A stretch of 64,000 nt of DNA from Chrysomallon squamiferum (Eukaryota > Animalia > Mollusca): contig CM022670.1 of assembly GCA_012295275.1 (NCBI GenBank), positions 41,664,001-41,728,000 on the forward strand. Direction: 5' to 3'. Positions 12,884 through 58,823 of the stretch are shown in pieces; the first letter of the stretch is position 1, and each line of letters starts with the position of its first letter. Below the pieces are notes generated by a model. That model saw nothing but the letters and a program-made list of their open reading frames with translations, did not search any database and was not told where the DNA came from. Position numbers and translations under genes: made by a program.

Positions 12884-14697
12884 ATGTTGTACTTACTGGC
12901 AGCATCTGTTTTTTTTTCTATAAATGTTTACATTTCAGGTATTTACTTTTTCATATCTACTGAATATCTGTTTATTTTGTTTCAGTTTCATTATTTCATT
13001 TTCAGCAATTTTTTAAATACTTAAATGTGTAATAATGTGTTTTTTTTCTTCAAATCATGCAGAATTTGTCCAGTTCAATTTTAATTGCTTTGTCAGTTTT
13101 TTAATTGTAGAAAAAACAACAACATTAATCATTATAATAACAGTACTGCTGCTACACCTTCTATTACAATTACTACTACTACTTCTACTACCACTACTGT
13201 TACTAATACTGCTGTTACTAATACCACTGTTACTGCTGCTAATAATTTTACTTCTACTAGTAATAGTACTGTTACTACTACAATGTTGTATTACTATGAC
13301 TGCTACTACAATTACTAATTTTTATAATGACAAACCAATATACTTATAATTACAAAGTTAAATGACAAATTAATTTATTCATTTGATAGATCAAATAAAA
13401 TGTAATAATAATTACACACATCAGGAGCAGTATGGAACATTAGGTTCCAGTTTTAGTGGATTTACCTTATTTACTGATATGTTCCTTAACTTCACATACG
13501 TATAAATGAGAATATTGCTAACAGATATAATGATTATTCATCTTTAATGCTGGGCTAGCTACTCTGTAGTATCTGTTCAGAAGAGTAGTGATTGAACATG
13601 GAAATTATAACTATGTTTTGAATAATAATTACACTATTGACAAGAAAGTTTTAAAGGTGTTTTTTCATGTGTGAAGAATTAAAAGAGTAGGAGAAAGATA
13701 CCTTATGGGTAGCGCTAGCAGCATGCAGATCTGTTGAAATATGAAATTGGGAACTGCTGCTGTGACATAAGAAAGAATATGTGTGTGTGTTTGTATGTAT
13801 GTATATGTGCATGTGTGTGTGTATTATAGATATAGAAACACAATAAAATAAAATAAAAAATACTAAATAAAAATATTTTCATTAAATATTTTCTTGTCAC
13901 AATTATAAAGTAGTTTTACTTTTGCTTACTTCATTTTAATTTTACATTGGCAGCAATAAAATATCACTGCATGTTAATGCACATTATTTGTATTTTTATA
14001 TTTAATTAAGTTTCATTCAATATGGAATGTTGATAATCCATTAATCAAGTAAAATTATGTTTACAGTTAACACATACTTATCTATGAATACTAGTATATA
14101 TTAAATAACAAGTATTTTGATAGATATACTTACAAATATATGAATTAAATTCAACAACAACAAAATATATATATATAAAATAATGTATAATTATGAAATG
14201 TAATAATCAACATATAAATAGGACTGACCAGATATATTTTAGAATACCTACATGTGCAGTTTTTGAACATTATAATTTATTGCAGTCAACGTATCAAAGC
14301 TGTTTATTCCATGTTTTTATCATTTATTTTCAGAACCACATGGTTTCTTTGATGGTAATTACTTTATAATTTCTATTTAACATTTAAAAATAATATTTTA
14401 AAATTAACAACAGGACCTATGACAACAAGAACAACAATAATAAAAAGGAAATGAAACAGTAACATCAACTATATTTCTTTACTTCTCTTGTTACTCCTTC
14501 ATTTATTATTGTTGTTGTTGTTGTTGTTGTTGTTGTGGTCATCATCATTTAATTGAAGAGTCTTTTTTTCTTGTTTATTATTTATTATACTTTTAATCTC
14601 TAATAATTTTTATCTTTATAATCAGCTTATGTCAAAATGTCTAATAATACACTTTCTAATTTCAGTCAAAACATTTTTACTCAGATTATATTATATG

Positions 14698-14760
<63 letters not shown>

Positions 14761-17700
14761 TTTGTGTGTGTGTTTTGAGGGTTTAGAGCCAGAAGGTGGT
14801 AACAGCATTTTTGCCAACTTGAGAAAAAAACAAAACAAAGTTTCAGTTCTCTGGCATTTTCATATGTACTGACACAGGTTTTTGAAATTACATGTTTACT
14901 GCTTGTTGAACAACTCATCTGTTCAGAATTGTTCAGTTCTAGTCATTGGCTCACCTCAGAATCACTTACAACATTTTGGCATATGAAGTGCAGATAAATT
15001 TGCATATTTTTACCAAACAATATCTTATATCCAATGCAATTATAATCCATATAATCTTAAAACATGTTAAAATACAGTAAAGTGTAGAACTAGTTAGAAC
15101 AAATGGCCAGGTATAAAAACCTGAAACGCAGATTCCAAAAAGTTAATTTGATGTAATAAAACTATTATTTACAAATTAAACCTTTTAATGTTCACCTTCA
15201 CTTGTCAATCTGATGTTTATGATTCATGTTAAAACTGTATTGACATATCTTTGTCATGGCCAAAATAACATTGTCAACATGTTTGGGCAGAAGTGTTATA
15301 TTGTATATAAGGAGTCCAAATCTTTTTTAGTTATTGTGAATGGAGGATCTGAGACAGAGTCATCTGAAAAACCTAGATTTGAAATGTCTGATTTGACATT
15401 TTGTGATATTTTAAAAAGTGTTCTGTAGCATTTTCGTTTTAGTTCATTCTCTGTTAATAACTTGTCTGAAATTTGACTTTCTAAAGTAATATTTCATCAG
15501 TATCAAAGATCCTTCTGACTTCATCCCAGTTCTCCTCTGTATGTTCATACTCCATTCCTGTAAATATTGGATGTACAAAAACAGTGTTATGTATATATAT
15601 GTTTTATCTGTTTGAAAAGGATTAAGTTATGTGCTTAATTAACGTAATGCAGTACTAACCAAATAAGAGCAATAGTCCAATAACAATAATTAAGTTGACA
15701 TATTATTTATAACTAATGTCACTATATTTTTTTTATTTTTTTTTATTATCGTTTAACAAAATTGAAGTAATAATGCCGAGGTGGTTGCATATAAAATATA
15801 TAAAGTGGCATTTGTTTTATGACAATTAAATTATTAATATTTAACTTACATTTTTTTGTTCAGCTGTTGTCTTCTCAAAATAATCATTATTTTGAAGAAG
15901 ATGGGATAAAAAAAAAATAGAACCTCTGTCTAATAGACAAATGTGCCAACGTTTTAATATAAAACACCAAGAAAATGTTGACATGAGTTTAAATAACTGG
16001 GAGACTGACAGGAGGGTAATCTGTTAATTAGCAGATCAAATTAACAGTGCTCTTGTAACAATGGCTACAACCATAAAGTCATAACTGCCCATACTCTTTC
16101 TCATCCTGGCTGGCTTAATATTTTAACACAAATGTACTGACTTCATTGGAACCAAAATGTTGTCAGTGCAGTTACGATTTTTTGGCACTAACAAATATTC
16201 ACTTACTATCCATACTCACTTACGACTATGTGGTTCTGATTGATATCTCAAAACATTATTCTGCTACTAACTTGATTGATAAATGAAAGAATATACTGTT
16301 GTAGTGTATTAGTGGTAAAATGTCATTTTCGTAGAAAATGCACTTAAATCCTTCGGGCTCTAACCCCTCTATATATGTGTGTGTATATATGAAGGTGTAA
16401 AATAAAATAAATAAACTGAAATTGTTTTAGACGATTTTATACTAACGGGACCTACAGAAGTCAAAGAGGGTCAAAGAACTGAGTATCTGTGTAAAATCCC
16501 TATGAAGCCAATAATCGAAGTACCTATGGCGTTTTCTGTTTTTGGAGAGGTAGTGTGTGCTGTCTTCCCCAACTGCAGTGTTATTATTAATGTGCCAGCT
16601 TATGAATGTAGCTGTGTGAACTCCACAGACTTGACTTCTAACTACAGAATGACGATGAAATATCCGACTGTAAGATATGGTCCTGGACTGTATTGTTCAT
16701 TTGCAGCTCAAATGAGCAATACAATTTATCTCTCGATTTACAGTAAGTTCTCTTTAATTTCTGGGCTGTTTGTCCCTATAACTCCCGAGATACACATACA
16801 CACCAGGATCCAAAAGAAACTTTACCATATTTTTAAACAAAAATTCTAGTTGAAAACATAGAACAATGATATACGCATGAAGTAAAATGTGTTGAAAAGA
16901 ACAATATGTCGACGTAATAAAAACTACAAAACCATAGAGCATCCGATAATAATGTCAGAATTAGTCAAAATGATGTGAGGTGTTAAAATGAAACCTTTAA
17001 CTTCAATGACCACACCCTCAACAAAAACAAAAAAAACAAACAAAAAAAACTGATGCATGGAATCAGGTCACTTTGGTCACGTAGCCATTCTCTTTCTGTG
17101 ACCTGAATCATTTCTTGTTGGACTGGCTGTGGGTGTGGATGTTTTCTAACACGAAGGTTCGTGTTGTCTCACAGGTGCACTGTTGAGGAGTGTGGTGAAC
17201 ATGCAGATTGTTGCAAGGTGTTGAGCTTGTTCGTTCCAAACACTTTTTGTATAATTCTGGAAAGATGACAGCACGACGCTGCTGTTTGAGAATTGGAAAG
17301 ATATCGGAAGTTGAATATCGTCGATGTTTTACGCTGGGCTGTCACAATTCTTGTCCACGGCAGCTTCCTGAGCACTTCCAGATTGAAGCACATTACACTG
17401 AGAAGATCGCTGAGAGGCTGCTTGAGCTGTAGCCCCAGATAGTAAGAGGCCTGTCAGCTACCTTTATTTCAGAACTCTCAAAAACCCTTAAACTGTACAA
17501 ATAAATATTTGCACGTTCAGTTGCGATTGTTCGTGCTTTTCGCGTATTCGTCCGAAAACCTGTTTGCATTATTGTCTACATACACTGCACTTGGATTGTG
17601 TTTTACCTTGTTTAGGTTTCAATTTGACAATGGTGAAGTTTCTGTTGGCTAATGTCACACATAAACATATACACTTACAGCCACACACGCAAAAGGACTA

Positions 17701-19231
17701 AATAGTAAACATGTTATTTTACAAATGTATGTTAAATAAGTGTGTTCATACACAGAAAATAATATTAAATTTGTGCATTTTCAAATACAGATTTACAAAT
17801 GGACATTAAATAATAAATATGTTCAGATAAATATCTAAAATCACACACGAAACAAAGAAATAATTATGTTCATACAGTTTTACATTAACTTATTAATGTG
17901 ATAGTACTAACAAATAGTCTACGTTTATATTAACTTATTAATGTGATAGTACTAACAAATAGTCTACGTTTATATTAACTTATTAATGTGGTATACTAAC
18001 AAATAGTCTACGTTTATATTAACTTATTAATGTGATAGTACTAACAAATAGTCTACGTTTATATTAACTTATTAATGTGGTAGTATTAACAAATAGTCTA
18101 CGTTTATTTTAACTTATTAATGTGATAGTATTAACAAATAGTCTACGTTTATTTTAACTTATTAATGTGATAGTATTAACAAATAGTCTACGTTTATATT
18201 AACTTATTAATGTGATAGTATTAACAAATAGTCTACGTTTATTTTAACTTATTAATGTGATAGTATTAACAAATAGTCTACGTTTATATTAACTTATTAA
18301 TGTGGTAGTACTAACATAGTCTACGTTTATATTAACTTATTAATGTGGTAGTACTAACAAATAGTCTACGTTTATATTAACTTATTAATGTGATAGTATT
18401 AACAAATAGTCTACGTTTATATTAACTTATTAATGTGATAGTACTAACAAATAGTCTACGTTTATTTTAACTTATTAATGTGATAGTACTAACAAATAGT
18501 CTACGTTTATTTTAACTTATTAATGTGATAGTACTAACAAATAGTCTACGTTTATATTTCCAAGTAATTCCTTTATTACTTTTACTTCTTGCTACACTTC
18601 ACCTATAGTGGTGCTAACAAATAGTTTCAGTATATTCTGCATGTGTCAAAACACTGTTTTAGCTGTTTAGTGTACAATCTGCTTGTATCATCGTATTATT
18701 TATCACGTACAGACCGCGACTGACAGTCTGACACATTATATAACACTTCCACGAGCACAAAGACAATATGATGATAAAAACAATAGTAATTCCTGATAAC
18801 AAAAAATCTGCAATCTGAAACTTAAATAATATTGATGTTTAACAAAGAAAGAAAACTCAGAATTACCACCTTCGTATCCACGACACTTTTTAATTTATTT
18901 ATTTATTTATTTGTCTGTTTTTATTTGTGTATTTTGTTTTCAGGGGAATACAAGTTCTTCACTGGTATTTACTTTCACTTTTCTGTTTACTAATAATAAT
19001 TTAACAAAAGCAACACAGACATCATCAACAACAACAACAACAAAAAACCCACAACAATAACAATAATTCTGTATCGTCCTTGTTCGTTTTTCATCATCAT
19101 CATTATTATTCAAAAGAATCTTTGTGTTATTTGTGTTTCTTAACAATTTATTTCACTTATTTATCCTTTATTTACCTTTTTACTAAGCTTATGTCAAAAC
19201 AACTTTATTCAAAATATTTTTACTGAGTTAG

Positions 19232-19267: not shown

Positions 19268-19639
19268 AACAAAAAACAAAGTCAACCCTAAAAATTGTTT
19301 TAGAGGATTTGGTCCTATCGGGACCGAACAAAGTGCTGGAGGGTAATCGAACTGAGTATGTGTGCAAGATTCCTGCGAAACACATAGAAAAAGTACCTAT
19401 GGTTTTTACTTTATTCGGAGGAGTGGTATGTGGTGTCTTCTCAAACTGCAGTGTTTACAGTGCCAGGCCTGGCTATAAATGTAATTGTGAGAATTCCTCT
19501 GACAGTGCTTCTTTCTACAGCATGACGATTGAAAATCCCAAAGTGAGAATTGGTTATCTGTTTTGCTCATTTCAAGGCCAATTAAGCAATAAAATTAAGC
19601 TACAAATCTACAGTAAGTTTTTCACATAACTATAGCTTT

Positions 19640-19834: not shown

Positions 19835-21277
19835 CAATAATTATCATTTACATAAATTATAATTCTGAAATATAATAATCAACATCACCAGCGTGTAAAA
19901 AGATCTATATAGTACCAGATGTATTTTAGTTAGAATACCTACATGTCCAGTTCTTCACGATAACATTATAATTTGTGGTAGATAACATACGAGCGCTATT
20001 CTTACTACATATTTTTCTATGTTTTTGTTTTATTTTCAGAGATCTACCGGTTCTTTCCAGGTATTTACTATAGCTTTTCTATTTAATATTCCAAAATTAA
20101 AGTTTTAATAATTACAACTACTAACATTACTGCTCCTTCTACCATACGAACAACAACAACAATAATAATATGGTTCTCATTTGTTTTATTTTATTTATTA
20201 TTATTGTTGTTGTTGTTCTTACTATTATTATTATTGTTGTTTTTATTTTTATTATTATTATATTTGTTATTCGAAAAAATTAAAATGTTTCCGCTCGCTA
20301 TTTGAATTTACTTATTTTCATCTTTCTATCACTCACTTATTCTTATATTTAATTCTTAATAATACGTTAAGTAACATGAATCAAAATATTTGAACCGAGT
20401 GAAAACATTTTATTTTTTTTATTTTAGATGATTTGATACTGACGGGACCTAGAACCATCGGATTCGGCAAACTTGTTCAGTATCAGTGCAGAGTTCCTGA
20501 GGAAAAAATTGAAAACGTTCCTCTGGTTTTTGGGACCATAAACGTTTAGTTTGTGCCGTCATGCCAGACTACAGCGTTCGTGATTGGGTGGATGGCTTTG
20601 CATGTGAATTTTTGCATTCTTCAGTAGATGCTTCTTACTTTGCCATGACGATTGATATTCCACAAGTGGAACACGCTCATTTGATAACCTGCTCATTCGA
20701 GGGTCAACGGAGCAATCAGATTGAGCATAAGATAGAGTAAGTTTTTTTGTTTTGTTTTTAAGTGTTGTAACTATAGTTGTTGTTATATGAAACTGTGCAA
20801 AAGAGTGCAGAGTAGGTTTTTCATATTGTAACTGTAGTATGTGCAAAATAGTGTATAGTAAGTGATATATATATATATCGTAATTATAGTTCTCATATCT
20901 TTTGTTACATGAAATTGGGCAAATGTTTTTTTTTTTTTTTTTTTTTATATAATATTGTACTATAGTTGTTGTTGTATATCTATGTAGTGGTTTTTAACCT
21001 CTTTTTGTTCTGACACACACACACACCCTTATATACATACATTATATAGCTGCTTTTGTTTTAAATGTCATTTAGCGGTGTTCAGTTCACTATTACTTAG
21101 CTGAAAAATGAAATCGGTGTATGTTTATAAATAGAAGACAATAACAAATAAATAAAAAAAAAAAAAAAAAAAAATAAATAAAAGGAAAATAAAATACATT
21201 AAGAAAGATATAATAAAAACATTTGTATTCTTTTCAGACAAGAAAATCTGCAGCCCGGGTATAACACAACTATTTGA
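12884..21277 (+). CDS. Cluster gene A: secreted protein with 3 Cys-rich Ig-like domains (~362 aa if a 1-nt deletion near 20530 is repaired)
   Basis: Signal exon 12884-12938 (MLYLLAASVFFSINVYIS); micro-exon 14334-14354; domain 16431-16742; micro 18944-18964; domain 19304-19612; micro 20040-20060; domain 20428-20736 (frameshift in a T run); tail 21238-21277. All junctions GT/AG with compatible phases. Confidence 0.78.
14777..16369. mobile_element. Non-autonomous DNA transposon with 20-bp GAG-initiated terminal inverted repeats, in gene A intron 2
   Basis: GAGGGTTTAGAGCCAGAAGG (14777-14796) and CCTTCGGGCTCTAACCCCTC (16350-16369) are 18/20 complementary. The intron is ~1.6 kb longer than the equivalent intron in paralogues. 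Confidence 0.65.
16980..17640 (-). mobile_element. Possible degenerate Tc1/mariner remnant
   Basis: GC-richer block with no counterpart seen in paralogous introns; broken minus-strand translation only weakly resembles a Tc1 HTH region. Confidence 0.3.
17885..18556 (+). repeat. 45-bp minisatellite in gene A intron 3
   Basis: TTAACTTATTAATGTGATAGTACTAACAAATAGTCTACGTTTATA in tandem; period 45 (17885 to 17930). Confidence 0.95.
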
Positions 21278-22901: not shown

Positions 22902-23046
22902 TTAAACAAACATTCCCTTCATAAACATCTTCAACTTCCCAAGGGAAGTGTTTAATCTGAAAGTAATACAAAGGTTTTTACAATACCTTTCTGCATGTGT
23001 GAACGCTTTTGTTCTATAATTATTATTATTATTATTATTATCATCA

Positions 23047-23393: not shown

Positions 23394-23991
23394 AAAAAAA
23401 ACACTACTTACTCTACACCCTGCAGGTAAATGATATTGCTGATTTGACCATGAAATGCACAATACACCAAAGGACCATACATGACGTCTTTGGGATTTTC
23501 AATAGTCATAAGGTAGTAAGAAGCTTTGTCTGTGGACATCACACATTTACATTTATAGCCGTTCGACTGATTAGGAACACTGCAGTCTGGGAGCACAGCA
23601 CACGTAACGCGTTCACTGACCAGAAAGAGCATAGGTACTTCTCTTATTTGTTTCACAGGAATTTTGCACACAAAGTCAATTGAATCACTATCTACAATTA
23701 TTTCAGGTCCCGTCAGTTCTAAATCGTCTAAAATAGTTTAAGAAGAAACAATCTGAGTGAAGTTTGCAAAAGTATTACTGGATGTTTTGTCAAACATTTA
23801 ATGTGAAGCTAACTCAGGAATAAACAGGTATACTATGTTCAGGTAATATAGATAAATAGAATAAGGATTCTTTCGAATAAATACATAAAGAGTGAGAAAA
23901 AAAAAAAAAAATAAAAATAACATCAACAATAATAATAACTATAAGTAATAATAACAAGAAGAGAAACAACAAAAAACAATAATAATAATAA

Positions 23992-24062: not shown

Positions 24063-25043
24063 GATTACTATTGTGGTTGTCGTTGTTGTAATTATTATTA
24101 TTGTTGTTGCAGCTGTTTTTATTATACTTTTATTTTTTTATATTAATTACAAAAAGGAATTTTTACCACAATAATATCGGTGGATTTCTGAAAATAAAAC
24201 AGAAAGATATGAAATCGTGACATAAATAGCTTCGATACATTGAAAAGAAGAAACTATAACGTTATATGTAGATCTGAACATATAGGTGTCTCAAGTACAA
24301 TATTACACTTCTTTATATATGTTGATTACTACATTTCGTAATTCTCATTTGTATTGGTATAAACGTGTTTATTATTGAATATACATTTGTGAATAGGTGT
24401 ATAAAACTATTTATTTGTTATTTAATGTATATTTGTAAATGTGCATATTAAAATATACATAAATATTATTGTAAATGTATGTGTTTCTAAGCATGTGTGT
24501 GTTGGTGTGTGTGTCTATATATATATATATGAGTGAGAAGAAAGGGCTTTCTAAATATCAGGATAGAAATATAACATGTTACAGTATGAAAAGCTCACCG
24601 TAGACTTGTATGCTAATTTCGTTACTCAGCTGATCGCTAAACTTGCAAGATGCAGAGAATCCGTAAACCTCTTTGAGATTCTTCATCGTCATTACGTAGT
24701 AGGAAGCTCTGTCTGTGGAGTTCACACATTTGCACTCATAGCCGTAGTGAACGTCAACTGCTTTGCAGTTTGGGAAGACAGAACAAACCACTTTGCTAAG
24801 CGTAAGAAAACTCACAGGCAAGTCCTTTATTTGTTTGACAGGAATTTTGCACACGTAATCAGCGCGTTTACCAGCTTCAACTAACATCGGTCCAGTTATT
24901 ACCAAATCCTCTAAAACAATTTATTATTTATTTATTTATTTATTTTTATCTCAGTAAAAATATTTTCAATAATTATTTGAAAAAACCCAACATATTAGAT
25001 GTTTTGACAAAATGTGAAATATATAGGTAACAAAGGTAAATGC

Positions 25044-25110: not shown

Positions 25111-26364
25111 GACAAGAAACCAGTGACTAATATGAGAAGAGATCGATTGTTGTTGATGCTGTTTTTGCTCTATCTTGTTGTTGTTGTTGCTGTTCTTTCA
25201 GCTATTTTTCATTTTTTCATTTTTGTGTTTTTTAATTGAAGCTGTTCTTGTTACTACAAATATTATTTTTGAATATTAAATAGCAAAATAAAGTTAGTAC
25301 CAAAGAAGACTCGACCGGGTTCTGAAAATAAAAGTAAAAGACAAAAACGTGGCAAACATATATTTAACATATGCAAATTATAATGCCATAATTTAGAACG
25401 AAATATACTGAAAGTAAATTTGTACATGATACTTTCAGAGCTGCTTTCCAAATCTTTCTCCTACAACTTTATGTCTATTCAGTTAGTAAGGAAAAAAAAA
25501 TATATAAAGCTTTCATTTTAATATGTTGTACCAAGCACAACACCAATATAAGTGCAGTTCGATGATTTTGTCACTTCAATTTCGAGTAGCTGTCATAGCA
25601 GAGATGAATAATCGTAATTGTTTAAAACAAAGAGAAATAAGGTAAATTCCCTAAAAGTGAAACCGAATTTTTCCAGTGGCAGAGGTTGCAAATTGAAATG
25701 AGGTTCCTTCCGCTAATTTATGTTAAAATGTATTACATTTAAAAAAAGATAATAAAGCAGTAGCTTAGCTTTTCAGCTATCAGTATGTTGCTTTATTATT
25801 ACCATACTTCGTAATATTAGTAAAAGTAGTAGGATTGGAAGTAACAGTAGCTGTACAGTAGTAAGTGTAGTACAGTTATTATTATTAGTAGTAATAGCAG
25901 TAGCAGTAGAACGGTAAATGCAGCAACAGTCGTAGTAGTAGAAGTAGCAGTAGTTGTTACAGTCATATTGGCACAGCTGTGTAAGTAGTGGTGTAGTAAT
26001 AGTAGTAATAGTATCTTTAGTAGTAGATGTAGTATTATTAGTAGTAGTAGACGTAAACATAGTAATAGTAGTAGCAGTAGTAGTAGTAGTAGCAGTATGA
26101 TCTGAGTTTTTCTATCATTAACTGAAAGTTATATGATCTGGAAGAAGGTTCATTTTGTATCTCAGAAGCAATAACAATTTTAATTAATAGTTTCTAAAGA
26201 AAAAAGAAGACATTATTACACATATAAGCACTAAGGAAATTGCTGAATAAAATACTATCTAGTTTGATAGAAAATCAACTAATCAATATTGAATAGAAAA
26301 ACTAAATACCTGAGATGTGTACATTTATAGAAAATAAAACAAATGCTGCAGGTAAAAAGAACAT
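22902..26364 (-). CDS. Cluster gene B: secreted 2-domain Cys-rich Ig-like protein (~259 aa), intact
   Basis: Signal exon 26364-26310 (MFFLPAAFVLFSINVHIS); micro 25321-25301 (EPGRVFF); domain 24910-24599; micro 24187-24167 (EIHRYYC); domain 23727-23412; tail 22956-22902. Confidence 0.82.
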
Positions 26365-28747: not shown

Positions 28748-30654
28748 TCTGAAAAGGACAGAAAAGTTTTTATTATATATTTATAAACAAAAGGTCAAAT
28801 TCAAGATCAAAGTGAAAAGCAAAATGGCACCACTCTTCAAATCGTCACTGAGGACGCGTTGTGAAATTACCTTTCTAGAAATACTCATTTCAGCACGATC
28901 ATCTGTTATTTGTTTGCTGAGCTACGTTTGAATAGTGGCTGATTCATCCCCAATTACCCCTAACACCTGTTTTCAGTAGAACTGGATACAGCGAAATTTA
29001 ATTTTCTCATTATTTTGTGTGGTTTGACGTGAATGATCAAGACGTAGTGACAATATGTTCAATTTCCATTGCTTCGAAGGAACCTACAAATATTTATTTA
29101 TTTTGAGCTAGGTGATCGTCGTCTAACACCACTAAATTATATTTAAAACAGAACTTATATAATATAATGTATGTAAGTAAGTGTGCATGTATATGTTTTA
29201 GGAGAAAGAGTTGTTAAAAACCACCACCACTACACACGCACGCACGCACACACACACACACACCTACACAAAACAACCACAGCTATGCTATGAAAAAACG
29301 TACTATATCATTTTGTTCGTAATTGCATTACTTCGTTGACCCTCAAATGTACAAGTTATCAACTGAGGTACACTCTTGTTGAAGTTTTTAGGCGTCATGG
29401 AAAAGTGAAGACTATGTTCTTCTTGAAGCAAAAACTCACATTCGTAGCCGGGTACTAAACTTCGATGACTGAAATCTGGGAAGACAGCGCATAGTGACTT
29501 TTTATAGTCCCAAAACATCACAGGTACTTTTTGAATTTTGTGGTCAGGAAGTTTGCACACAAACAAAATCTCTTGGCCGTCTTTAAATACTGTCATTTCC
29601 AAATCGTCTGAAACAGTTTCTTTTTCTGTTATATACATATAAAATACACATATAAAAGAAAAGGTGTAATAAGTTATTTCACAAACAAAACAGAGATTTT
29701 TTTGAATAAATAATAATACTAATAATACTAATAGTAATAATAATAAGATTGATAATGAGAACGATAATGAGAATTATTGTTGTCGTTGATTGTGTTGTTG
29801 TTGTTGTTAAAGTTACTGGTTTTAAATGTTAAATAGAAAAATGATAATAAATACCAGTGAAGAATCGGTAGGGCCCTGAAAAACAATTGAAAAAAATAAA
29901 AAGTAAAAATAATAAAAATAATGGCTCGGTCATGTAGAAGTGTATACTTATATGTATGTATATGTATGTATATATGTATGTATGTCTGTAAGTACGTACG
30001 TAAGTATGTATGGGTAATTCCACGACTGAAGGCACATGAGGGAAACAAATTTCATTGTGTAAAGGGTCAACATTTATTCACAAATGTTCTAATTTATAGA
30101 AAAACTGTAAAATTTTGTTGACGCATAATTTGTTTTCTCATGTTTCTGACATGAACACGTGTCACACAATTTCAAGGGTACAAACTACATATAAATAGGA
30201 TTATTAAGCCTCTCAAATCATCCACACTTAAATTGGCTTTGACACTTCGTTTTATTCAATTTATAATATCAGTTTAAAGAAATTGGAAGCTCAAACTATT
30301 TTCTGAAAGTTAGTAGCCAAAAAACTGGATTTAAGGTAAAAAAGCTCAGACAAGGTAAGCCCGTCACAAAAAATTGCCACTGAGGATAGTTGCTACATCC
30401 CCTTCATTCGGACAAATGACGGGGTGGACATTTCTGAATAATTCATCTGCGTGGTGGTAAGAAGGAAGAAGAGCCAATCCAGTTAATGAGGGTTGCTTAA
30501 CACAGCCTGTGACAACGAATTACTCTTGGAGAGGTAAAGAATATTGATGATGGGAATTTGGACCCTCTAAATGTAACACTTGTTACCGTGGAAGTGCCTA
30601 TGTATGTATGTGTGTATGTGTATGTGTATGTGAGTGTGTATGTGAGTGTGTGTG

Positions 30655-31064: not shown

Positions 31065-31516
31065 TAACTATATACTATCTAGAAAAATAACTAAAGCCAG
31101 TCTTCCAATAATTGTTAAGAAAAACTTACCGTAAACAACGAGCGTAATTGTGTTGCTTTCTTTATTTTGATATGAACAAAATATGCGTAAGTTATACGTC
31201 TTTTGGGCTTTGACGATCGTCAGAACGTAGACAGAAGCATCCTCTGTGACGGTTCCACATTTACACTGATATTCCCTGGACACAGCATGAGCTGAGCAGC
31301 CGGGTTTGATCACACAAACTAACCGTCCGAGCGCGGAGAACACAACGGGACCATCTTGTATTTGTTGCATGGGAACTTTGCACTGGTATTCGACTCGTTC
31401 AAAAATTCGGATTTTTGTTTTCCCCGACAACACTAGGTTACCTAAAACAGTGTGTTGGGAAATGCATTAACAGATGCGTGGACAATAAGCCGAATATAAT
31501 GATGACAGAGATTTTG

Positions 31517-31748: not shown

Positions 31749-34047
31749 TGATGGTAACAACAATAAAATTAATAATAATAATAAAGACGTCGACGACAGT
31801 AACAACCACAATAATAGCAATAACAATAATAACAATAACAATAATAATAACAATAACAAAAACAACAGCAACAATAATAATAATAACAACAACAACAACA
31901 ACAATAATAATAATAAAAAAGAAGAAACAGTGAGTAACAAGCGAACGTTGTTGCTGTATAAAATGTGGAAGAGAACGTTTGATGTGTTGACTACCTGATA
32001 GTGTAGAATTTATCAAATATCAGATCATCTGACAATCCTTTTTATTTCTTTACTTCTACAATTCATAATCCTTATTGTGATTACTATTGTTTCTTCTTCT
32101 TCTTCTTAAAACGCTGTGTTAATCGAATGTCTATTAAAAATAATGTAAAATAACACCCCTAAAGACCACCCCAATTTTTTGTAATGTGTTTTTTCAATAA
32201 GAAAAATGTATGTATAAATGACAAATGTTGTATAAAAACAAATAAAAGGGAATGTAAAGAAATAAGTTGGTTTTGTGAAGTGTACATGGTTAGGGTTTCT
32301 CCATCTTTTCATGGACAGATGTCCTCCGCTTAGAAATTATTTTAACGCCTTTGGCTGGAGTTCTAGCCTTTATTGACTCCTGTTTCAGTATGGTACATAT
32401 CGTAAAAGTACTACGCTCATACTGCCTAGCCATGTTGACTACACCATCACGTCGCTCATGTTTTTCTATGATTTCCTGCTTTAATTAAATGGACATCAAC
32501 CGCTTCTTCTTCTCAGCACTGTCCTTTGCACGCACTTTCTTAGGATCAATGGAAATTTGGCAAAATACTGCACAAAACACGAGCACAACACAACAGAGAT
32601 GCTTTTACGGCAAGGTAATCACGTGAAGTAAACGAGTATGATGCGGGATGCTGGGCAGATGCTGTGTTGTTCGCTGCACCAATAGTGGCGGCGTCTCTGA
32701 AGCTCGCTCGTAACTCAGATTTTGGCTCGCAACTCAAAGCAAGAACCGATTGTGCATATCGACCGCTTTGTGACGTCATCGGTGTCGCACATGGTGACCA
32801 GTTTACGTATACCAGTAATGTGGGTGAAAGTGAAAATGGAAGGGGAAAACACCGCCGATAACAAACAAAAAAGAAGTAAATCCACTAAACAGTTAATGAT
32901 GTCACAAAATGATCTCTTTGGACATTAGTGTATGCTTCAGCAGTATTTTATTTATTATTATTTTTTAAAATTAGTTAACAAACAAAAATCGTGACTCAGA
33001 GAACTAAGTGAAACAGAAGTACTATGAACATATTTTAAAATAGTTTTGACATAATGTAGATTTACAGATATATATTTGATAACGCTGAACATATCTGATA
33101 GTTTTACTCAGTTTAATGGATGCTACAATATGCCATGTTAAATGAAACTGTTAATCAAAAGCATTGTCCCAGTGTTTGATAAAAACAATCAAGATCTATT
33201 CTATTCTTCTGAAACCTTTAACGGTGTCAGTGTAGAGACAGAAAGTTTCGGAACATCACTCACCTACAAAAATCTGGCAGCCACAGTATAAAACACAGAC
33301 TGATCAAAGGCGACTGTTTCGTGGAATGAGCACTGAACTCAGTGTGTTCACTGAGGTATACAACAAAAGATCTCAACAATTCATGTTTGCCTCATGCAAT
33401 CTTAATTATCTTTGTTTATTATTTATGTAAAAAATGCAGAGGACAGCTAATGCAAGCCTAAATCATTAGACAGCTTCAAAATTTCAGATAAAATAAACTG
33501 TATTGCATTAAGTGTCAGCCTGTAACAATCTCATGCTATAGAGGAATGTTGTTTCCAAAACGTAGGAAAGCTCATGATACAGTTTATACATTCTTATGAT
33601 CTAATAAATCCTTTAAATCCTCTAAAAATGTGATCTAATACTTTAAATCCTCTAAAAATGTGATCTAATACTTTAAATTCCCTAAAAATATGATCTAATA
33701 CTTAGTTTGTGGATGATACACAATTTGAAGTATATTTGTTTTTTTATGACAAAACTTAGTTGTAGCAGTTGTGGTGATGGTGGTGGAAGGAATAATAGAC
33801 GTATATCGTTAATCCTATAATAATTACTTTCTAGAGGTTATAAAAAGTTCCAGAAATTGTTTTTCAAACACATATAATTTAAATAAACACATTTGCATGA
33901 TAAAGAGAAACAGAATTGCTGAAAATAAAACAATGTCTACTTTGACAGAAAATAAACAGATCTATATTCAATAGATATGAACATGTAAATACCTGAAATG
34001 TGCAGACTTATAGACAATAAAACAAATACTACAGGTAAAAATGACAT
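28748..34047 (-). CDS. Cluster gene C: secreted 2-domain Cys-rich Ig-like protein (~230 aa); first micro-exon not found
   Basis: Signal exon 34047-33993 (MSFLPVVFVLLSISLHIS); domain 31441-31130; micro 29875-29855 (GPYRFFT); domain 29607-29304; stop formed as TA|A across the last intron (acceptor before 28748). Confidence 0.75.
30012..30599. mobile_element. Putative DNA transposon fragment inserted in a (TATG)n tract of gene C intron
   Basis: Imperfect terminal inverted repeats GGGTAATTCCACG / CGTGGAAGTGCCT (10/13) with TATGTA repeats on both flanks. Confidence 0.4.
32130..32820 (-). mobile_element. Internally deleted Tigger/pogo-family transposon
   Basis: Minus-strand 32550-32290 translates IDPKKVRAKDSAEKKKRLMSI*LKQEIIEKHERRDGVVNMARQYERSTFTICTILKQESIKARTPAKGVKIISKRRTSVHEKMEKP, resembling the CENP-B-type HTH N-terminus of Tigger transposases. 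Element ends are approximate. Confidence 0.8.
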
Positions 34048-39107: not shown

Positions 39108-39832
39108 CTATAGATTTTTCGCTCTGAAAGGAATAGAAATGATTTATTATAATTTTTTATCTGTGTTAAGTTTTTTTTTTTATTCTTTTTCATTACCATA
39201 ATTATTATTTATTTAACTTTCATGCTTCTTCTTTTTCAAAACTAGGCGGTAAACATAGCTTGATTGCATTTTTCAGTTAAGTGGACATTTGAAACAAAAC
39301 ACGTCTATATAACGTTTGTAAATAAGTGTGTGTAGATGTCCCAGCAGAATGTCCTATTAAAAACACCACAGAGATAACAAATTAATAATAACAGTAACAG
39401 TAAACAACTTACTTACATCGTTTTCCTAATTCGATTGCTTCGTTGACCCTGAAATGTGCATATTATCGAGGGAACAAGTTCTGTTTTATGATTTTCAATC
39501 GTCAAGACAAAATATGAAGCATCTTCTGAGGAACGCAAATGTTTACACTCAAAGCCATCCACCCAATCACGAACGCTGTAGTCTGGCATGACGGCACAAA
39601 CTAAACGTTTATGGTCCCAAAACACCAGAGGAACGTTTTCAATTTGTTTCTCAGGAACTCTGCACTGATACTGAACATGTTTGCCGTCTTCGATGGTTTT
39701 AGGCCCCGTCAGTACCAAATCATCTAAAACAATTTGTTTTGTTTTTTTACTGCAGAAAAAATATCTTGTTTCATATTCTGGAAATGTTATCTATCTTTCG
39801 ACATAAGCTGAATATAAAGATAAGTTGGGAAT

Positions 39833-39950: not shown

Positions 39951-40202
39951 AACGACAAGAAGAAGAATAAGAATAAATACAACACTAAAGGAATCAGATG
40001 AATAAGTAACGAGAACTATAGAATCATAATATTTACTGTTGTTTGTTGTTATTGCTATTGCACTTTTTGCAGTTAATGTTGTTTTTATTAAAGCTATTAT
40101 TTTTAAATGCTAAATAGAAAGATATAAGTAGATACCAGTGAAGAACCGGTAAGGCTCTGAAAAAAATAAAAAATAATAATAATAATAAAAAAATAATAAT
40201 AA

Positions 40203-40590: not shown

Positions 40591-43114
40591 TGTATTAACG
40601 TACATTTCTAAACGTGTGAAGTATATTTGTAACCCTGTGGTTGAACATATTTATCACTTAAGATACATTTGTAAATCAGTGAATAAACATTTCCTAAAAT
40701 AATGTTTGTTTTGAAACATGTATTATATGAACATATTCGTTACGTAATCAATTTTTAAGTCTGTATACGAATATACTATTTAATGTATTTGTAAATATAC
40801 GTAAAAACATATTTGCAATTATAGTAAATAATTAAATATGAGTATGAACTTTTTCATTATTTAGTATACATTTGTAGCTGTATATTAGCATATAGATGTA
40901 TGCATGAATATATTAATTATTTAATGTACATTTGTAACTATATATGAATATATTTGTTTTGCTTTACATTTGTAAATAGGTGTGTGTGTGTGTGTACATG
41001 AACATATTTATTATTTAATGTATATTTGCAGATATTTGCAGAACTATTTAGAAATGTGAGTAAAAGCAGTTAAAAAATTAGAAACTTACTGCGTACCACT
41101 ACCCTAATTCTGTTACTTTTTTCACCTAGAAATATGCAACCTACAATAAACCCATTTTTCTTTTCGGGATATATAATCGTCATTACGTAGTGAGAAGCTT
41201 CGTCCGTGGAGTTCAGACATTTACATTGATATCCTCCCACAACACCACGACGACTGCAGTCTGGGTAGACAGCACACACCGACCATCCATCTACGACAAA
41301 CGCCACGGGTGCTTTTTTATATTTTTTTTTCACAGGAAGTTTACACACATAATTAGCTTGTTGACCCTTTTGGACGAATTCACTTCCCGTTAGAATCAAA
41401 TCGTCTGAAACAATTTGTTGTGATATTTGTTAGCTGTTGTTTTGACATAAGCTGAATACAAAGACAGAGGATGCAGACAGCAGTAAAATAAATATTTAAT
41501 AAACATAAATAGCACAAATTTCTTTTGAATTATTATTAATAATGATCATGATGATGATGATGATGATCATCATCATCATCATGATAATGACGGTGATGAT
41601 GGTGATGATGATGAAGATATGACAAACAGTTAAGTAACGGCAGAAAAATAGAACTAAAAGGACTGTTTTTATTGTATTTTGTTGTTGCTGTTCCTGTTAT
41701 TATTATTATTATTATTATTAATTTTTATTATATAAATTATTATTTTTAAATGTTAAATAGAAATGTGTAAATAAATACCAGTTAAATATTGGGTATCTGA
41801 AAATGAAGTAAAAAACGAGAAAAAAAACGTGTTAAGAAATAATGTTTCTGGATTACTACATTTCATTTTTATTTACTCTTTCTTTATGTGAATCATTATT
41901 TAATGTATATATTTGTAAATATGTTTATGTACTGTTTGTTAATATGTATGTGAATATATCTATCTATCTATCTATATCTGTTGTTTGATGGATTTGTAGG
42001 TGATAACTGTGAACGTATTTATTTTACACGTTTAATGGATGGCCCAAAATGCAGTGTTAACAGAATAATATATATATATATAGATGGATGGATGGATGGA
42101 TGGATGGATGGATGGATGGATACATACATACATACATACATACATACATACACAAGCACATAATTTAAAATAACATAAATCAGCAATGATTTTTCGAAAT
42201 GCCTTTCTTCTTCTTCTTCTGCTTCTTCGTAATATTATTATTATTCTACTAATATATTAATATAAAAGAAAAATATTTTTTTTTTGCACAATTTATCTGC
42301 TAAAATAATTTTTAACGAAAAGTATTATTTTTATTACGTTTTTGTATTTTATTATGATTTTTTTTAATAAAAATATATGCAAAGTAATTTTGGACACATT
42401 CTTTGAAGTCTGTTCCTGTTTCCAGTACTAAACTCCAGTGTTCCATTATTTTATCACTTCGATTTCGTGTGGCCAACATAGGAGCTGAAGTTGAACCCAA
42501 GTATGTGACCATGACGTGTCTCTGTACACAAAACTACTACTACTACTACTACTACTACTAATAATAATAATAATAATGAAAATTCTTCTGCCGGAGAGTG
42601 TCCATAACATGCATTATAAGTATTCAGATTCTTTTTCATCTATGAAATTAAAAACTGAAACTATCGTGGAACTTTCTAATCTTAATTATATCGATTTATC
42701 ATTAAAGTAGTAGCAGCAGTGGTAATAATAACAATGGTAACTAGTAGCAACAGTACTAGTTGTGATTTTAGTAGTAGAGTTACCAGAGATAGTAGAATAA
42801 TAGTGGTATGACTAACACTAGTAGTGGTATGTTATTTTTATGATAACTACTGGCAGATCAGAAAAAACTGACAAAGCGATAATCACGTAACTGACTCTGC
42901 TTGTGGAAATAACTGAAATGAAAAAACGTTGTGTATAATTTGATGAGAAAAGAAAATATTATCTCATGTATAAGAACTAACAAAACTGCAGAACATAAAA
43001 CAGTGTCTTGTTTGCTAGACAATAAAAAGGGTATCCAATAGACAGAAAAAAGTAAATACCTGAACTGTGCAGAGTTATAGAAAATAAAGCAAACACTGCA
43101 AGCAAAAGCAACAT
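39108..43114 (-). CDS. Cluster gene D: secreted 2-domain Cys-rich Ig-like protein (~243 aa), intact
   Basis: Signal exon 43114-43060 (MLLLLAVFALFSITLHSS); 18-nt micro 41796-41779 (DTQYLT); domain 41404-41090; micro 40156-40136 (KPYRFFT); domain 39723-39417; tail 39123-39108. Confidence 0.82.
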
Positions 43115-50324: not shown

Positions 50325-52790
50325 ATGTTCTTTCTATATCCAGTATTTGTTGTGTTTTCTATGAATCTGCACATTTCAGGTATTTACCTTTTCGAATCGA
50401 CTGAATATAGACCTGTTTATTTTACATCAGACTAGATATATTGTTTTCATTTCAGAATATAGTACTTAAATTTCATTTTTCAAAAAGATTATACACAGAA
50501 TTATAGACATAATCAATTTCTATCACACTGCCAGATCTAAGACAAATCTTCCAGTTTAGATAACAGTTCCTCTATAGCAGAAAAAAAAGAGAAGTTTTTT
50601 CGTAATAAAACTACGACTCGTACCACCAGAACGACTTACGCTAACAACTCTTACTACACTGCTACTGCTGTTACTAGCACTCTGTTGTTGCTACCACTTA
50701 CATTAATACCAAAATTGTTACTACTACTACGACTACTAATCTTTACTATCCTAATAATAATAACACTCTTACTACTACTACAACTACTACTGTTACTAAC
50801 ATTACAAATTCTTGTAATAACAAACCAATATATTGAGGACTAAAAAGTTAAACTATGTCTTCATTTATTCATGTGACAGATCAAATAAAATGTAATAATT
50901 ATTGTAATAAAAAATGGAACATTTGGCTACAGTTTTAATGGATTTACCTTATTTACTGCTATGTTCCTTAACTCCTCCAATTTGAAAATGAGAATATTGT
51001 TAACAAATGATTATTCATCTTCAACTACAATGATAACCACTGGAATTCGAATCAATCAAGTTATAATGGTATTCTGCTTATTGCTCTGAGCATTAAAGAG
51101 AAAGCTTTAATTTCCTTTGTGAACAGTTGTTGTGTTCCTTCCCTCCAAATACTGTACACAGAATACTGTTTAAAAAATACGATTAGATTTCCCTAGTGTT
51201 TCGTTAGCCAAAAGGAGTCATAAAATGATCGAATACTGCTTTTATGATGATATTCTGCTTAGTACTTAAACTATTAAAATGAAATCTTTAAATTGCTTTT
51301 TTGCGTCGCTAAATAAAACTAAAGCGATAGGAGAAAGAGATTTTCAAGGCAAACATTCAGTGATGCATACAAATCTGCCGAAATATTTATGAAGTTTTTG
51401 AACTGCTACGACAGGAAAGAAAAATAGAAGAATACTAGTCACAAATTTGTATCAGTATGTTCAACTCTACATTATAGCATTATAGTTGTTTGTTTTTCTT
51501 TCCATTTTAATAAAAACTATTTTTGCTACGTTCTTAATCTTTGTTTTATTTTCAGAGCCAGGCCGAATGTTCACTGGTAATTACTTTAGTTTTCTGTTTA
51601 GCATTTAAAAATAATACTTTTAATGACAATAACAGCAGCAGCAGTAATAACAACAAAATAACAATAAAATACCACAAAATGAGAAACAAAAATAAGGTTT
51701 CTGTTCTTCTCGAGATTTATTCAATTTTCTTGATTACGATTCTTCTTCGTCTTATTATTATTATTACTGTTATTATTATCATTATCATTCTTATTTTAAC
51801 TGTTATTATCATTATTATTATTGTTATTACTGTTATTATTATTATTATCATTATTATTGTTACTCTTATTATCACTATCATTCTTATTTTTAGTGTTATT
51901 GTTGTTATTATTATTATTTTCATCACTATCATTGCCATTATGACTACTACTGCTACTCCTCCTCCTCCTCCTCCCTCCTACTACTACTACTATTACTACT
52001 ACTATTACTACTACTACTACTACCACTACTACTACTACTACTACTGTTTCCGTTTTAGAGGATCTGGTTCTGACGGGACCATTAGTAGTTGCAGACGGGA
52101 AACGCGCTGACTACGTGTGCAGGATTCCTGTCAAACAAATAGAGGAACATCCAGTGATTTTTGTTTCGGCTGGAAAGACGGCATGCTCTGTTTTCCCAGA
52201 CTGCAACGTGCGCGGTGCTATGTACGGCTATGAGTGTAAATGTGTGAACTCCACAGACACAGCATCTTACTACGTAATGTCGATTAAAAATCTCAACGAT
52301 GACGACGGACTTTTAGTACATTGCTCATTTCACGGTGAGCGAAGTAACAAATTGTGGGCAATGGTTTATCGTAAGTTTTCCACATTCTGTCAGTATTCAT
52401 ATTCTATGCAGCTGTGTTTATTAGTTATTCAGTTGTACATGATACTATTAAAAATCGAAAAATTTGAATAATATACATGTATAATAAAGAAATACAAAAG
52501 TGAATTATGAAAAGTAGTAATCGGCGTATAAAAAGAACTGCATAATGATCAGATATATTTTAGTTAGAATACTATATGTTCAGTTCTGCATGATATAATT
52601 TGATAAAGTCAGTATATCTTCATTCTTTTCATTTTTTCAGGAACCCAACGATATTTCACTGGTATTTAATTTCTCTTTTCTATTAAAAAGTAACAACAGT
52701 AAGCAACAGTAGCAACAACAAAAACAATAAGAAATGCAACAACAACAATAATTATCCTAGTGTTCTCATTATTACTTTATTTTCTATTTG

Positions 52791-52834: not shown

Positions 52835-53353
52835 TGTCATCATTATTTATCTATTTATTTATTTTAAAAAGCCTGTGCTATTTCTCTTTATTTCATACAC
52901 AGTTTCAATATTTATTCCTCAGTTAGTTTTACATTTAACGTTTGTCGAAACATCAAGTAATACTATTACAAACTTCAGTCAGACTGGTTCTACTGAACCT
53001 GTTTTAGACGATTTAGAACTGACGGGACCTACAACGATTCACGATAATGAACCGACTGAGTTCGTGTGCAGACTTCCTGTGAAACAAATAAAAGAAAGAC
53101 CTGTGACATTTTTTGTGCACACAGTGGCAGCATGCGCAGTGTTCCCAAACTGCACGCGTGTCGCGCACATGAACACGTATCAGTGTAAATGTGTCAACTC
53201 CACAGCCAGTGCTTCTTTCTTCCTCATGACGGTTAAGAATCCTAAAGAGATGTGTGGTCCTTTGGTGTATTGTGTTTTTAACGGTCAACTGAGCAACGTA
53301 ATTGAGGTACAAGGTGTAAAGTAAGTTTATATCTGTACATCTATATGTAATAA

Positions 53354-53742: not shown

Positions 53743-53775
<33 letters not shown>

Positions 53776-53886
53776 TGTGGTTTTAGTACTAGTAATAGTG
53801 GTAGTAGTAGTATGAACCTACAAGCAAAAAGATATAGTAAAAACATTTGTATTGTTTTCAGACTAAAGGATCCGGAGATGCAATAG
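50325..53886 (+). CDS. Cluster gene E: secreted 2-domain Cys-rich Ig-like protein (~248 aa), intact
   Basis: Signal exon 50325-50379 (MFFLYPVFVVFSMNLHIS); micro 51556-51576 (EPGRMFT); domain 52059-52370; micro 52641-52661 (RTQRYFT); domain 53008-53320; tail 53862-53886 (KLKDPEMQ*). Confidence 0.85.
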
Positions 53887-55118: not shown

Positions 55119-55149
<31 letters not shown>

Positions 55150-55263
55150 TTGTATGTGTTACTGCAAGTTTATAATCGGATTTTATATACTATAAAAAAG
55201 GTAGAACAAGTCTGTGTGTGTGTGTATGTGTCTGTGTGTGTGTCTGTGTGTCTGTGTGTGTAT

Positions 55264-55309
<46 letters not shown>

Positions 55310-56188: not shown

Positions 56189-56385
56189 ATGTTATTTTTA
56201 CCTGTAGTACTCGTTTTATTGTCTATAAATCTGCACATTTCAGGTATTTACATTTTCATATCTATTGAATATATATTTATTTTGCAGCAAACTAGACATC
56301 GTTTTATTTTCATTAATTTTGTTAGAATTTATGAATCTAATATTTTATTATTTAAATATATTATTATTATCACACACACACACAT

Positions 56386-56416
<31 letters not shown>

Positions 56417-57157
56417 GAACTTGTCCATCTCAATTTTTATTGGTTTGATATACGGAAAGTACGTCATTTATTAAAATCGAATAATAAATAAATAAAATAA
56501 AATAGAATAATAATTTTTTAATTTAAAAACAAAATCGATTTTGTTGCCACTTTTCACGAATGATTCGACGACTTTTCAAGATCGCATTACATTTATAACA
56601 TTCCCACTACATTCCTTAACTCCGAACATTTGTAACTGAGAATTTTAACAGAGATACGATTATTCAACCTTAGTGATATGCTAGTCATTTGAAATCGAAG
56701 TGATAAAATGATCGAACACTGCAGTTGTCATAGTGTTGTACTTATTAGTATTACAATGAAAGCTTTAAATATTTTTTCCCTTTAAAGAGATAAAGCTGTA
56801 GGAGAAAGAGATTTTGGAGGCAGAATACAAATCTGTAGAAATAGTCATAAAGCTTTGAGCTTCTCTGAAAGGAAAATAAAATAATGTCCAGAATTACTTT
56901 GGATAAATTTTTTTTCAGTACCTTTAGTACCACATGATAACATTGCACATTTGTTGTTGTCAGTATTTCAATATATAAGTAATTTTTGACATCTTTTTAT
57001 CTTTTTATTATTTTTTTTTCAGAGCCCACCCAACACTTCACTGGTATTTACTTTTATTTTTCTATTCAACATTTTCAAATAAAAGATACAATATGTCAAC
57101 AGCAACAGTCAAACATGCAGTAATAGTTCCATTTTCTTTCATAGCTCATTCGTTTTC

Positions 57158-57229
<72 letters not shown>

Positions 57230-57895
57230 GTTGTTGTTGTTGTTGTTGTTGTTTGCTTTGAAAAATCTTTGTGCAATCTGTTCTTATCATTGATATATTA
57301 TACTTATTATGTTCATTTTTTTGTCAAAACGTCTAAAAATACATTTCCCAACTTCAGTCAAATTATTTTAAATAATCATTTAAAAATTATATATATATAT
57401 ATATCGCAAAAAAAAAAAAAAAAAAAAAAAAAAACAGAAAAAAAAACAACTAAATAACAACAACAACAACAACAAAAAAATAAAAAAATAAAACAAATAT
57501 ATATATATATATATATTTATTTATTTATTTTTTTGTTTTTATTATTATTTTTTTATTGTTTAGTGCCTATGGTGCTGACGGGAAAACATTTCGCTGTAAA
57601 CGACAAACTAGCTGAGTATCTGTGCAGAGTTCCTCTGAAACAAATCCATAAACTACCTGTGGCGTTCACTGTGAATAAGTGGGCGATATGTGCTGTCTTC
57701 CAGGACTGCACAGTTCTTGGTGTTGTGGACGGATATGAATGTAACTGTGTGAACTCCACGGACAATGCTTCTTACTACCGTATGGCCTTTTTTAATACCA
57801 AACTGAAAAATAAATTTGATGTAAAATGCTTATATGATCATCAAGAAAGCAATAACCTTAAAGTCGTGGTTTACAGTAAGTTTTGCATATCATAA

Positions 57896-57980
<85 letters not shown>

Positions 57981-58823
57981 CATAAACATGTTCACTGTTC
58001 TTATACACACACTAACGTGTAAATTATAGTAAATGTGTTCACACATATTTACAAATATGATTTAAATAACAAATATTTTCATACACATATTTACAAATAT
58101 TAATGTAAAAACAAAACTTTGCACAAACACATTTTTCAATACAATTTAAATAACAGCTATGTTCACACAGATATTTACAAATACAATTAAATAAATATAT
58201 TGAACACATTTCCAGATATAATTTACATAGCACACATGCTCACACATATATTTACATATTTACATTAAATAACAAATGTTTTCACACACACATTTACAAA
58301 TGTGCATTAAATAGGAATAATGAAAGTTGCTTTATCTATTTCTTGTTAAAGTGTACAAACGTCTTTTTATCAGCCCCGTGTAGAATACCGGCCCTGTTCA
58401 CAACCTGACACATTTTATGATACTTCCGCAGACACAAAGACTAATGACACTGTGATGATAAGAACAACAGTGATTCGTCACACAGCGATTCGTTAAAAAT
58501 CTGAAATCTGTAACTTAGATTATATACACGTATAGTAACTAAATAAAACCTAGAACGAGCAAATGTAGGATTATTAAAAAAAAGGATTGGATGGTGACGA
58601 GATACATTTTAGTTAGAATACTACACGTCCAGTTCTAAATGACAGACTTATAACTGGTTGTATATCAAAGATATACTTGCCACACTTTCATATATTTTAA
58701 TTTATTTTCAGCTAACAGAAACTTCTTCGAAGGTATTTTCTTTCTTTTCTATTAAAGTTTAAAATTATTATTTTAATAATAATAGCACAATAATTATTTT
58801 TCTCGTTATTTATTAATTTATTT

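Follow-up and report, generated by a model that had tools for sequence, protein, structure and literature searches.

A cluster of genes for small immunoglobulin (Ig)-like proteins, in which nearly every domain exon is preceded by its own micro-exon, was analysed in a 64,000-nucleotide (nt) stretch of the genome of the mollusc Chrysomallon squamiferum (GCA_012295275.1, contig CM022670.1, positions 41,664,001–41,728,000 of the forward strand). The whole stretch is referred to as the window, and its first letter is position 1. Six tandem gene models lie on both strands (g1, g2, g3, g5, g6 and g7). Twelve stretches of 21 or 18 nt within them look like real, maintained coding micro-exons, and the signals in the DNA make their constant inclusion in the transcripts moderately likely. 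The mechanism is probably an ordinary one, namely a repeated module of micro-exon and Ig-domain exon in an undescribed family of secreted Ig proteins. The match between the intron starts behind the signal-peptide exons and behind the micro-exons is new here, whereas the layout is unusual but of a known kind.

The preliminary description of this DNA had proposed 12 micro-exons with TTTCAG acceptors and G|GTA donors, and all 12 were confirmed in the sequence: TTTCAG stands directly 5' of the exon, the last base of the exon is G, and GTA follows directly. The length is 21 nt in eleven of them and 18 nt in the remaining one, all are multiples of three in phase 1-1, and each is located upstream of a domain exon on the sense strand. 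The micro-exon was said to precede almost every domain exon, which agrees with the 12 of 14 found here. The spliced models reproduced all 12 proposed peptides, including the junction residues, and the adjacent aromatic pair described as mostly kept is present in nine of them. The pattern TTTCAG-N17-20-GGTA had 15 matches in the window, 12 of them being the micro-exons, whereas 100 shuffled sequences gave 0.49 matches on average and 5 at most. As this pattern was derived from the finding itself, a separate test was performed with acceptor and donor matrices trained on signal, domain and last exons only, the micro-exons being excluded. Among the 22,479 scored AG..GT pairs of 3–51 nt on both strands, the micro-exons ranked 1, 3, 4, 6, 7, 9, 11, 13, 14, 17, 48 and 144, i.e. 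10 of the 12 were within the top 17. The nhmmer model of the 12 micro-exons detected no thirteenth copy in the window.

The GC content was 46% in the micro-exons, 42% in the domain exons and 24% in the flanks upstream of the micro-exons. In-frame stops were absent from all 12 micro-exons, and the other two frames contained one and two. When the eleven 21-nt copies were compared, the DNA identity was 0.52 within the micro-exon and 0.55 at intron positions +7..+30, 0.42 at +31..+60, 0.34 at +61..+120 and 0.32–0.38 upstream. The X5 contigs, which may originate from the assembly's own sample, cross both micro-exons of g2 with no listed difference inside. The independent splice-site ranking, the exon-like GC content and the higher conservation of exon and donor flank than of the distal intron thus argue for real coding micro-exons.

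The window contains 14 domain exons (304–316 nt; the broken copy 306 nt) and 7 signal-peptide exons, which each contribute 55 coding nt and end at a phase-1 donor (Table 1). In the gene models, the signal exon is followed by two pairs of micro-exon and domain exon, three in g1, and by a short last exon. The exception is g3, where domain 1 has no micro-exon and the frame continues from the signal exon straight into the domain exon; in intron 1 of this gene, no micro-exon was detected by nhmmer or by a scan for AG..GT exons with a multiple-of-three length. The second domain exon without a micro-exon is an inverted broken copy (34683–34988), 95% identical to the g5 domain-1 region. The spliced models of g2, g3, g5 and g6 have an open reading frame throughout. 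In the case of g7, an in-frame TAG lies 3 codons before the donor of the last domain exon, and in g1 domain 3 carries a 1-nt frameshift in a T run (a pseudogene or an assembly error). The suggestion that internal domain exons can be skipped in frame was valid for those 7 intact exons that are in phase 1-1. In each of the 6 genes, however, the final domain exon is in phase 1-2 and is therefore not skippable in frame.

After the phase-2 donor of the last domain exon, a conserved acceptor was found 289–555 nt on, resulting in a coding tail of 0–18 residues, and read-through of this donor also hits a stop at once. At the donor GTAAGT (e.g. 23412, 39417 and 53320) the retained intron gives an in-frame TAA; the spliced and intron-retained ends would thus yield nearly the same protein. 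Since none of the models has a membrane anchor with either ending, the proteins are predicted to be secreted, and those of the two-domain genes should have about 230–260 amino acids. An acceptor-like tract (TTTTATTTTC or ATTTTCAG) was observed at 12998, 33931–33919 and 56301, about 60 nt past three signal-exon donors, and no exon of a multiple-of-three length follows the one in g3 (33931–33919). The seventh signal exon (61695–61749) is followed by no micro-exon or domain exon within the window; a long satellite comes after it, and the gene may continue outside the window.

The AlphaFold2 model of the domain exon alone, calculated on a 12-domain alignment, had a predicted local distance difference test (pLDDT) score of 89.3, with residues 1–10 at 93. 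Foldseek matched it to VH/VHH domains (template modelling score about 0.77), and in the VIA-align comparison with a VH domain (Z 13.8, root-mean-square deviation 1.9 over 100 residues) residues 1–103 of the model were superimposed on VH residues 3–111. The single-sequence model of a last-type domain was weaker (pLDDT 65) and also starts with a strand at residues 3–10. The domain exon alone is thereby predicted to encode a complete V-type Ig domain, a beta-sandwich superimposable on V domains. As the domain exon already holds its first strand, the micro-exon peptide would be placed outside the core, as a spacer or linker and not as a core strand. The proposal that skipping could toggle an N-terminal strand is not supported by this model, in which the V-like fold is complete without the peptide and residue 1 is aligned with VH residue 3. 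The first micro-exon would thereby extend the N-terminus behind the signal peptide, and the later ones would form an inter-domain linker, each adding a spacer of 6–7 residues before a predicted V-type domain.

The cysteines C20, C42, C59 and C88 are invariant in all 12 aligned domains, and C20 and C88 form the core-spanning pair in strands B and F, as assigned from the predicted model. C48 and C61 are lost together in two last domains of the alignment, which suggests a C48–C61 disulfide in the other domains. The last domains at 20428–20736, 29304–29607 and 39417–39723 form a distinct clade with 100/99 support.

Constant inclusion is suggested primarily by the splice signals. The acceptor tracts of the micro-exons have on average 17.0 pyrimidines of 21, compared with 11.0 in domain exons (p = 3e-5). 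The T fraction at -20..-6 is 0.67–0.87 and lower further upstream in all 12 micro-exon acceptors, and the median intron downstream is 395 nt long. Neural microexons of the SRRM3/4 type have UGC close upstream of the acceptor; here, TGC was present within 20 nt of none of the 12 acceptors and within 40 nt of three. TGCATG was absent from the 6,392 nt downstream of the micro-exons. A U12-type intron was also considered and rejected, the donors being without the GTATCC motif. In human brain, about 81% of micro-exons are constitutive, with strong sites, proximal T and short introns, and conserved flanks with downstream TGCATG mark the alternative micro-exons of vertebrates (PMC4317164). We propose that the micro-exon would have arisen once, that it and the domain exon were then duplicated together as a module in phase 1-1, and that whole genes were duplicated afterwards. 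Its splicing would rely on an acceptor that is T-rich and unusually strong and on the shortness of the intron downstream.

Several points weigh against this reading. Rules derived from human may not apply to molluscs, the absence of TGCATG is a mild argument with about 1 expected from the window rate, and the downstream flank is conserved at both +7..+30 and +31..+60 (0.55 and 0.42, as given above), which in vertebrates is a mark of alternative micro-exons. The first peptide may be dispensable, as the frame of g3 is open without it. RNA X6–X8 covered no exon of g2 and contained 0.00 of the g6 words (X1–X4 0.05), neither of which is evidence of absence; the coverage of X5 ran through the g2 introns, as DNA would. 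These read tests comprised g2 by mapping and g6 by words only. The ratio of non-synonymous to synonymous differences (pN/pS) of the micro-exons was 0.88 in frame versus 1.21 and 0.94 out of frame, so that the protein-level constraint on the peptide appears weak. The peptide identity of the 21-nt copies was 37%, with an aromatic fifth internal residue in 11 of 11. The claim that the micro-exons are under selection is thus upheld for their maintenance, as judged by splice ranking, GC content and conservation of exon and donor flank, while selection at the peptide level is weak. The similarity of micro-exons did not track that of domains overall (Mantel rho -0.21, p = 0.89, 11 pairs). For the closest domain pairs, it was 0.71, 0.67 and 0.67 compared with the mean of 0.52, and for the second domains of g2 and g7 only 0.24. 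The duplication of modules is accordingly deduced from the repeated layout and not from matching trees.

The donor type G|GTATTTA is common to the signal exons and the micro-exons, whereas the domain donors are GTAAGT; the signal exon is an obligatory exon, and the donor type that it shares with the micro-exons is in keeping with their constant inclusion. The introns of the 7 signal exons and 12 micro-exons were compared at +7..+30, with the splice consensus excluded. The score was 0.508, and the best of 22 shifts was at zero (column-permutation p = 8e-5), whereas the control with 14 domain donors resulted in 0.331 (p = 0.71). With the micro-exon matrix, all 7 signal introns were recognized at p < 0.05, and the 11 matches of a motif scan were all located at signal or micro-exon donors. 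The sequence GTTTTATTTTC occurs 6 times in the window, 3 times in micro-exon acceptors and once in a signal exon, 20 nt before the donor. The in-register match suggests either a shared origin of signal exon and micro-exon or a common splicing element at a fixed distance.

In the former case, a signal-peptide exon would have been duplicated and one copy reduced to its 3' end, which became the ancestral micro-exon: this copy would have kept the donor and the intron start, and its T-rich hydrophobic codons would have become the polypyrimidine tract of a new acceptor. This origin, compatible with constant as well as regulated inclusion, is put forward tentatively. Besides the donor-side matches and their control, the presence of GTTTTATTTTC in both micro-exon acceptors and a signal exon is in its favour. 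A homology of the acceptor tract with the signal exon was set aside, as the acceptor-side test is not specific: domain exons, used as the control, also gave significant values at three offsets (p = 0.04, 0.001 and <0.001). In addition, the exon bodies are unlike in frame (H-I-S versus F-F-T), the comparison was noticed post hoc with copies that are not independent, and the same signal would be expected of a splicing element that many genes of this animal carry at a fixed distance.

Regulated skipping, in which inclusion varies by tissue or challenge and the linker changes from about 8 to about 1 residues with an altered geometry or partner, is considered unlikely. Each micro-exon can be skipped without a frameshift, as was pointed out earlier, since all 12 are multiples of three in phase 1-1, and 7 of the 12 are located between two Ig domains. 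In addition, the flank downstream is conserved, and the junction of signal and domain in g3 is open without the peptide. However, the length had been taken as a sign of a cassette, which does not follow: a constitutive exon between phase-1 sites must be a multiple of three too, and the 12 copies are paralogues. Frame neutrality is explained by the flanking phase-1 sites and the likely inheritance from one ancestor and is thus no proof of alternative splicing. The acceptors surpass those of the obligatory domain exons in strength, proximal TGC and downstream TGCATG are lacking, and the conserved flank element is also present after the obligatory signal exon. A precedent exists in meA/meB of the LAR-type receptor PTPRD, alternative mini-exons of the Ig region that set the ligand choice (PMC12598525), of which meB changes an inter-domain linker in this way. 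The likeness consists in an in-frame mini-exon encoding a short linker beside Ig domains. In contrast to meA/meB, which are proven to be alternative and belong to a membrane receptor, the signals here favour constant use in small proteins predicted to be secreted and Ig-only. Still more improbable is the combination of a signal-exon duplicate as the source of the micro-exons with their regulated use as a separate switch for every domain, giving up to 2^n linker isoforms per gene in an undescribed secreted family of V-type Ig proteins.

It is very doubtful that the stretches are never spliced in, being decayed exons or conserved intronic elements bypassed by direct signal-domain and domain-domain joins, which would also be in frame. 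No transcript was seen in X6–X8 where g2 and g6 were probed, pN/pS is near 1, and direct joins are open, as in g3; however, all 12 have kept both of their splice sites although the distal introns have decayed to the background identity (0.32–0.34), and there are no in-frame stops in any of the 12, an exon-like GC content and a single indel of 3 nt. Equally improbable is the first micro-exon as the second half of a leader, removed with the signal peptide like exon 2 of the FCR/FCRL genes, where a 21-bp second exon completes the leader and occurs once (PMC7940838). The size and position match in 4 of 6 genes (g1, g2, g6 and g7; 18 nt in g5, none in g3), and both systems have a 21-nt exon between signal and Ig-domain exons that is kept across a duplicated family. 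However, no sequence relationship was found, and homologous exons also precede 7 internal domains here, where no leader is needed. Moreover, the peptides end in bulky aromatics, unlike the small residues typical of a cleavage site, and g3 has a full leader without a micro-exon.

The VCBPs of amphioxus and ascidians are secreted proteins with two tandem V-type domains and a C-terminal chitin-binding domain, encoded in a gene cluster. The genes studied here are also clustered and are predicted to share the secretion and the tandem V-type domains, but the chitin-binding domain is absent from the models. The FREPs of the snail Biomphalaria require a fibrinogen domain (PMC7588048). Similarly to FREPs, the present models have a signal peptide together with one IgSF domain or two (three in g1), but they lack a C-terminal fibrinogen domain, all 6 being predicted to stop within 18 residues after the last domain. 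No sequence match to FREPs was found, and the available part of PMC7588048 does not describe micro-exons for them. In the schistosome MEGs, as much as 75% of the coding sequence consists of micro-exons, and their skipping has been shown (PMC4015677). Both are secreted proteins with very small exons, the secretion being predicted here; however, the micro-exons make up only about 5% (42 of about 780 coding nt in g2) and alternate with folded domains of 100 residues. In the literature covered, which is without most subscription papers and supplements, no description of a layout of micro-exons and Ig domains in a mollusc was found.

None of the 12 domains matched an Ig family of Pfam at E up to 1. 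No domain homologues were detected among the 3,479 candidates of a word search in longer proteins, among 1.84 billion representatives searched with HMMER (E up to 0.001), or among 401 pattern matches in metagenome contigs. The ESM Atlas gave unnamed mollusc clusters at 0.94–0.95, which serve as leads only, and V-set clusters at only 0.90–0.91. The domains diverge fast, with a mean identity of 42% and a median dN/dS of 0.63 (65 of 66 pairs), which fits a recognition role but does not show it; a function in binding outside the cell, by rapidly evolving molecules, is the likely one for these proteins. An estimate of extra family copies from the X5 depth was rejected because the paralogues in the window map across.

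If the micro-exons are constitutive, they correct the models for a family of Ig genes that is restricted to its lineage and evolves fast, and 12 paralogous micro-exons become material for studying how such exons are kept. The match of signal and micro-exon intron starts offers a testable route of micro-exon birth from a duplicated first exon. Regulated inclusion would mean a linker switch per domain in a secreted invertebrate Ig family, of interest to immunologists and splicing biologists, and with such a switch at every domain, splicing would diversify recognition molecules of invertebrates in a manner different from that of Dscam, FREPs and MEGs.

Table 1. Exons of the Ig-like gene cluster, in positions of the window.
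Feature	Position	Strand	Evidence
g1 signal-peptide coding exon (ATG to phase-1 donor)	12884..12938	+	spliced model
g1 micro-exon 1, EPHGFFD	14334..14354	+	splice signals, spliced model, matrix ranking
g1 Ig-like domain exon 1, phase 1-1	16431..16742	+	fold prediction
g1 micro-exon 2, REYKFFT	18944..18964	+	splice signals, spliced model, matrix ranking
g1 domain exon 2, phase 1-1	19304..19612	+	
g1 micro-exon 3, KIYRFFP	20040..20060	+	splice signals, spliced model, matrix ranking
g1 last domain exon, 1-nt frameshift in T run	20428..20736	+	
g1 putative last exon, coding part, short tail and stop	21238..21277	+	
g2 putative last exon, coding part	22902..22956	-	
g2 last domain exon, phase 1-2	23412..23727	-	
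g2 micro-exon 2, EIHRYYC	24167..24187	-	splice signals, spliced model, X5 contigs
g2 domain exon 1, phase 1-1	24599..24910	-	
g2 micro-exon 1, EPGRVFF	25301..25321	-	splice signals, spliced model, X5 contigs
g2 signal-peptide coding exon	26310..26364	-	
g3 last domain exon; stop via read-through or across junction to acceptor at 28748	29304..29607	-	
g3 micro-exon, GPYRFFT	29855..29875	-	splice signals, spliced model
g3 domain exon 1 (no preceding micro-exon found), phase 1-1	31130..31441	-	
g3 signal-peptide coding exon	33993..34047	-	
Broken inverted partial copy of g5 domain-1 region (95%), no micro-exon or signal exon	34683..34988	+	
g5 putative last exon, coding part	39108..39123	-	
g5 last domain exon, phase 1-2	39417..39723	-	
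g5 micro-exon 2, KPYRFFT	40136..40156	-	splice signals, spliced model
g5 domain exon 1, phase 1-1	41090..41404	-	
g5 micro-exon 1, 18 nt, DTQYLT	41779..41796	-	splice signals, spliced model
g5 signal-peptide coding exon	43060..43114	-	
g6 signal-peptide coding exon	50325..50379	+	
g6 micro-exon 1, EPGRMFT	51556..51576	+	splice signals, spliced model
g6 domain exon 1, phase 1-1	52059..52370	+	
g6 micro-exon 2, RTQRYFT	52641..52661	+	splice signals, spliced model
g6 last domain exon, phase 1-2	53008..53320	+	
g6 putative last exon, coding part	53862..53886	+	
g7 signal-peptide coding exon	56189..56243	+	
g7 micro-exon 1, EPTQHFT	57023..57043	+	splice signals, spliced model
g7 domain exon 1, phase 1-1	57564..57875	+	
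g7 micro-exon 2, TNRNFFE	58712..58732	+	splice signals, spliced model
g7 last domain exon, phase 1-2, with an in-frame TAG shortly before its end	59133..59445	+	
g7 putative last exon, after the early stop	59735..59771	+	
Seventh signal-peptide exon	61695..61749	+	

Two other genes were recognized in the window. The exons at 1807–3635 (- strand) belong to a hillarin/KY-like gene with a transglutaminase fold (Pfam Ig-like_KY, E 2.5e-26), which matches the hillarin-like protein of Gigantopelta aegis at 45% and Lottia at 33% and points to a gastropod as the likely source of the window. A gene for a NUDIX hydrolase is represented by the exons at 8091–9867 (- strand; E 4.4e-6 and 0.0029 for Pfam NUDIX), and a diverged copy (64%) of the 9367–9683 region is located at 45061–44725. 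Intron 1 of g3, the one intact gene without a first micro-exon, contains a GC-richer segment at about 32290–32900 (- strand) with a 64-codon open frame, which may represent the N-terminus of a Tigger/pogo transposase and gave no Pfam match. A 45-nt minisatellite occupies two places, 17858–18717 (g1 intron 3) and 45376–46888, and other satellites are located at 244–1190, 11065–12141, 48636–49549 and 62082–64000.

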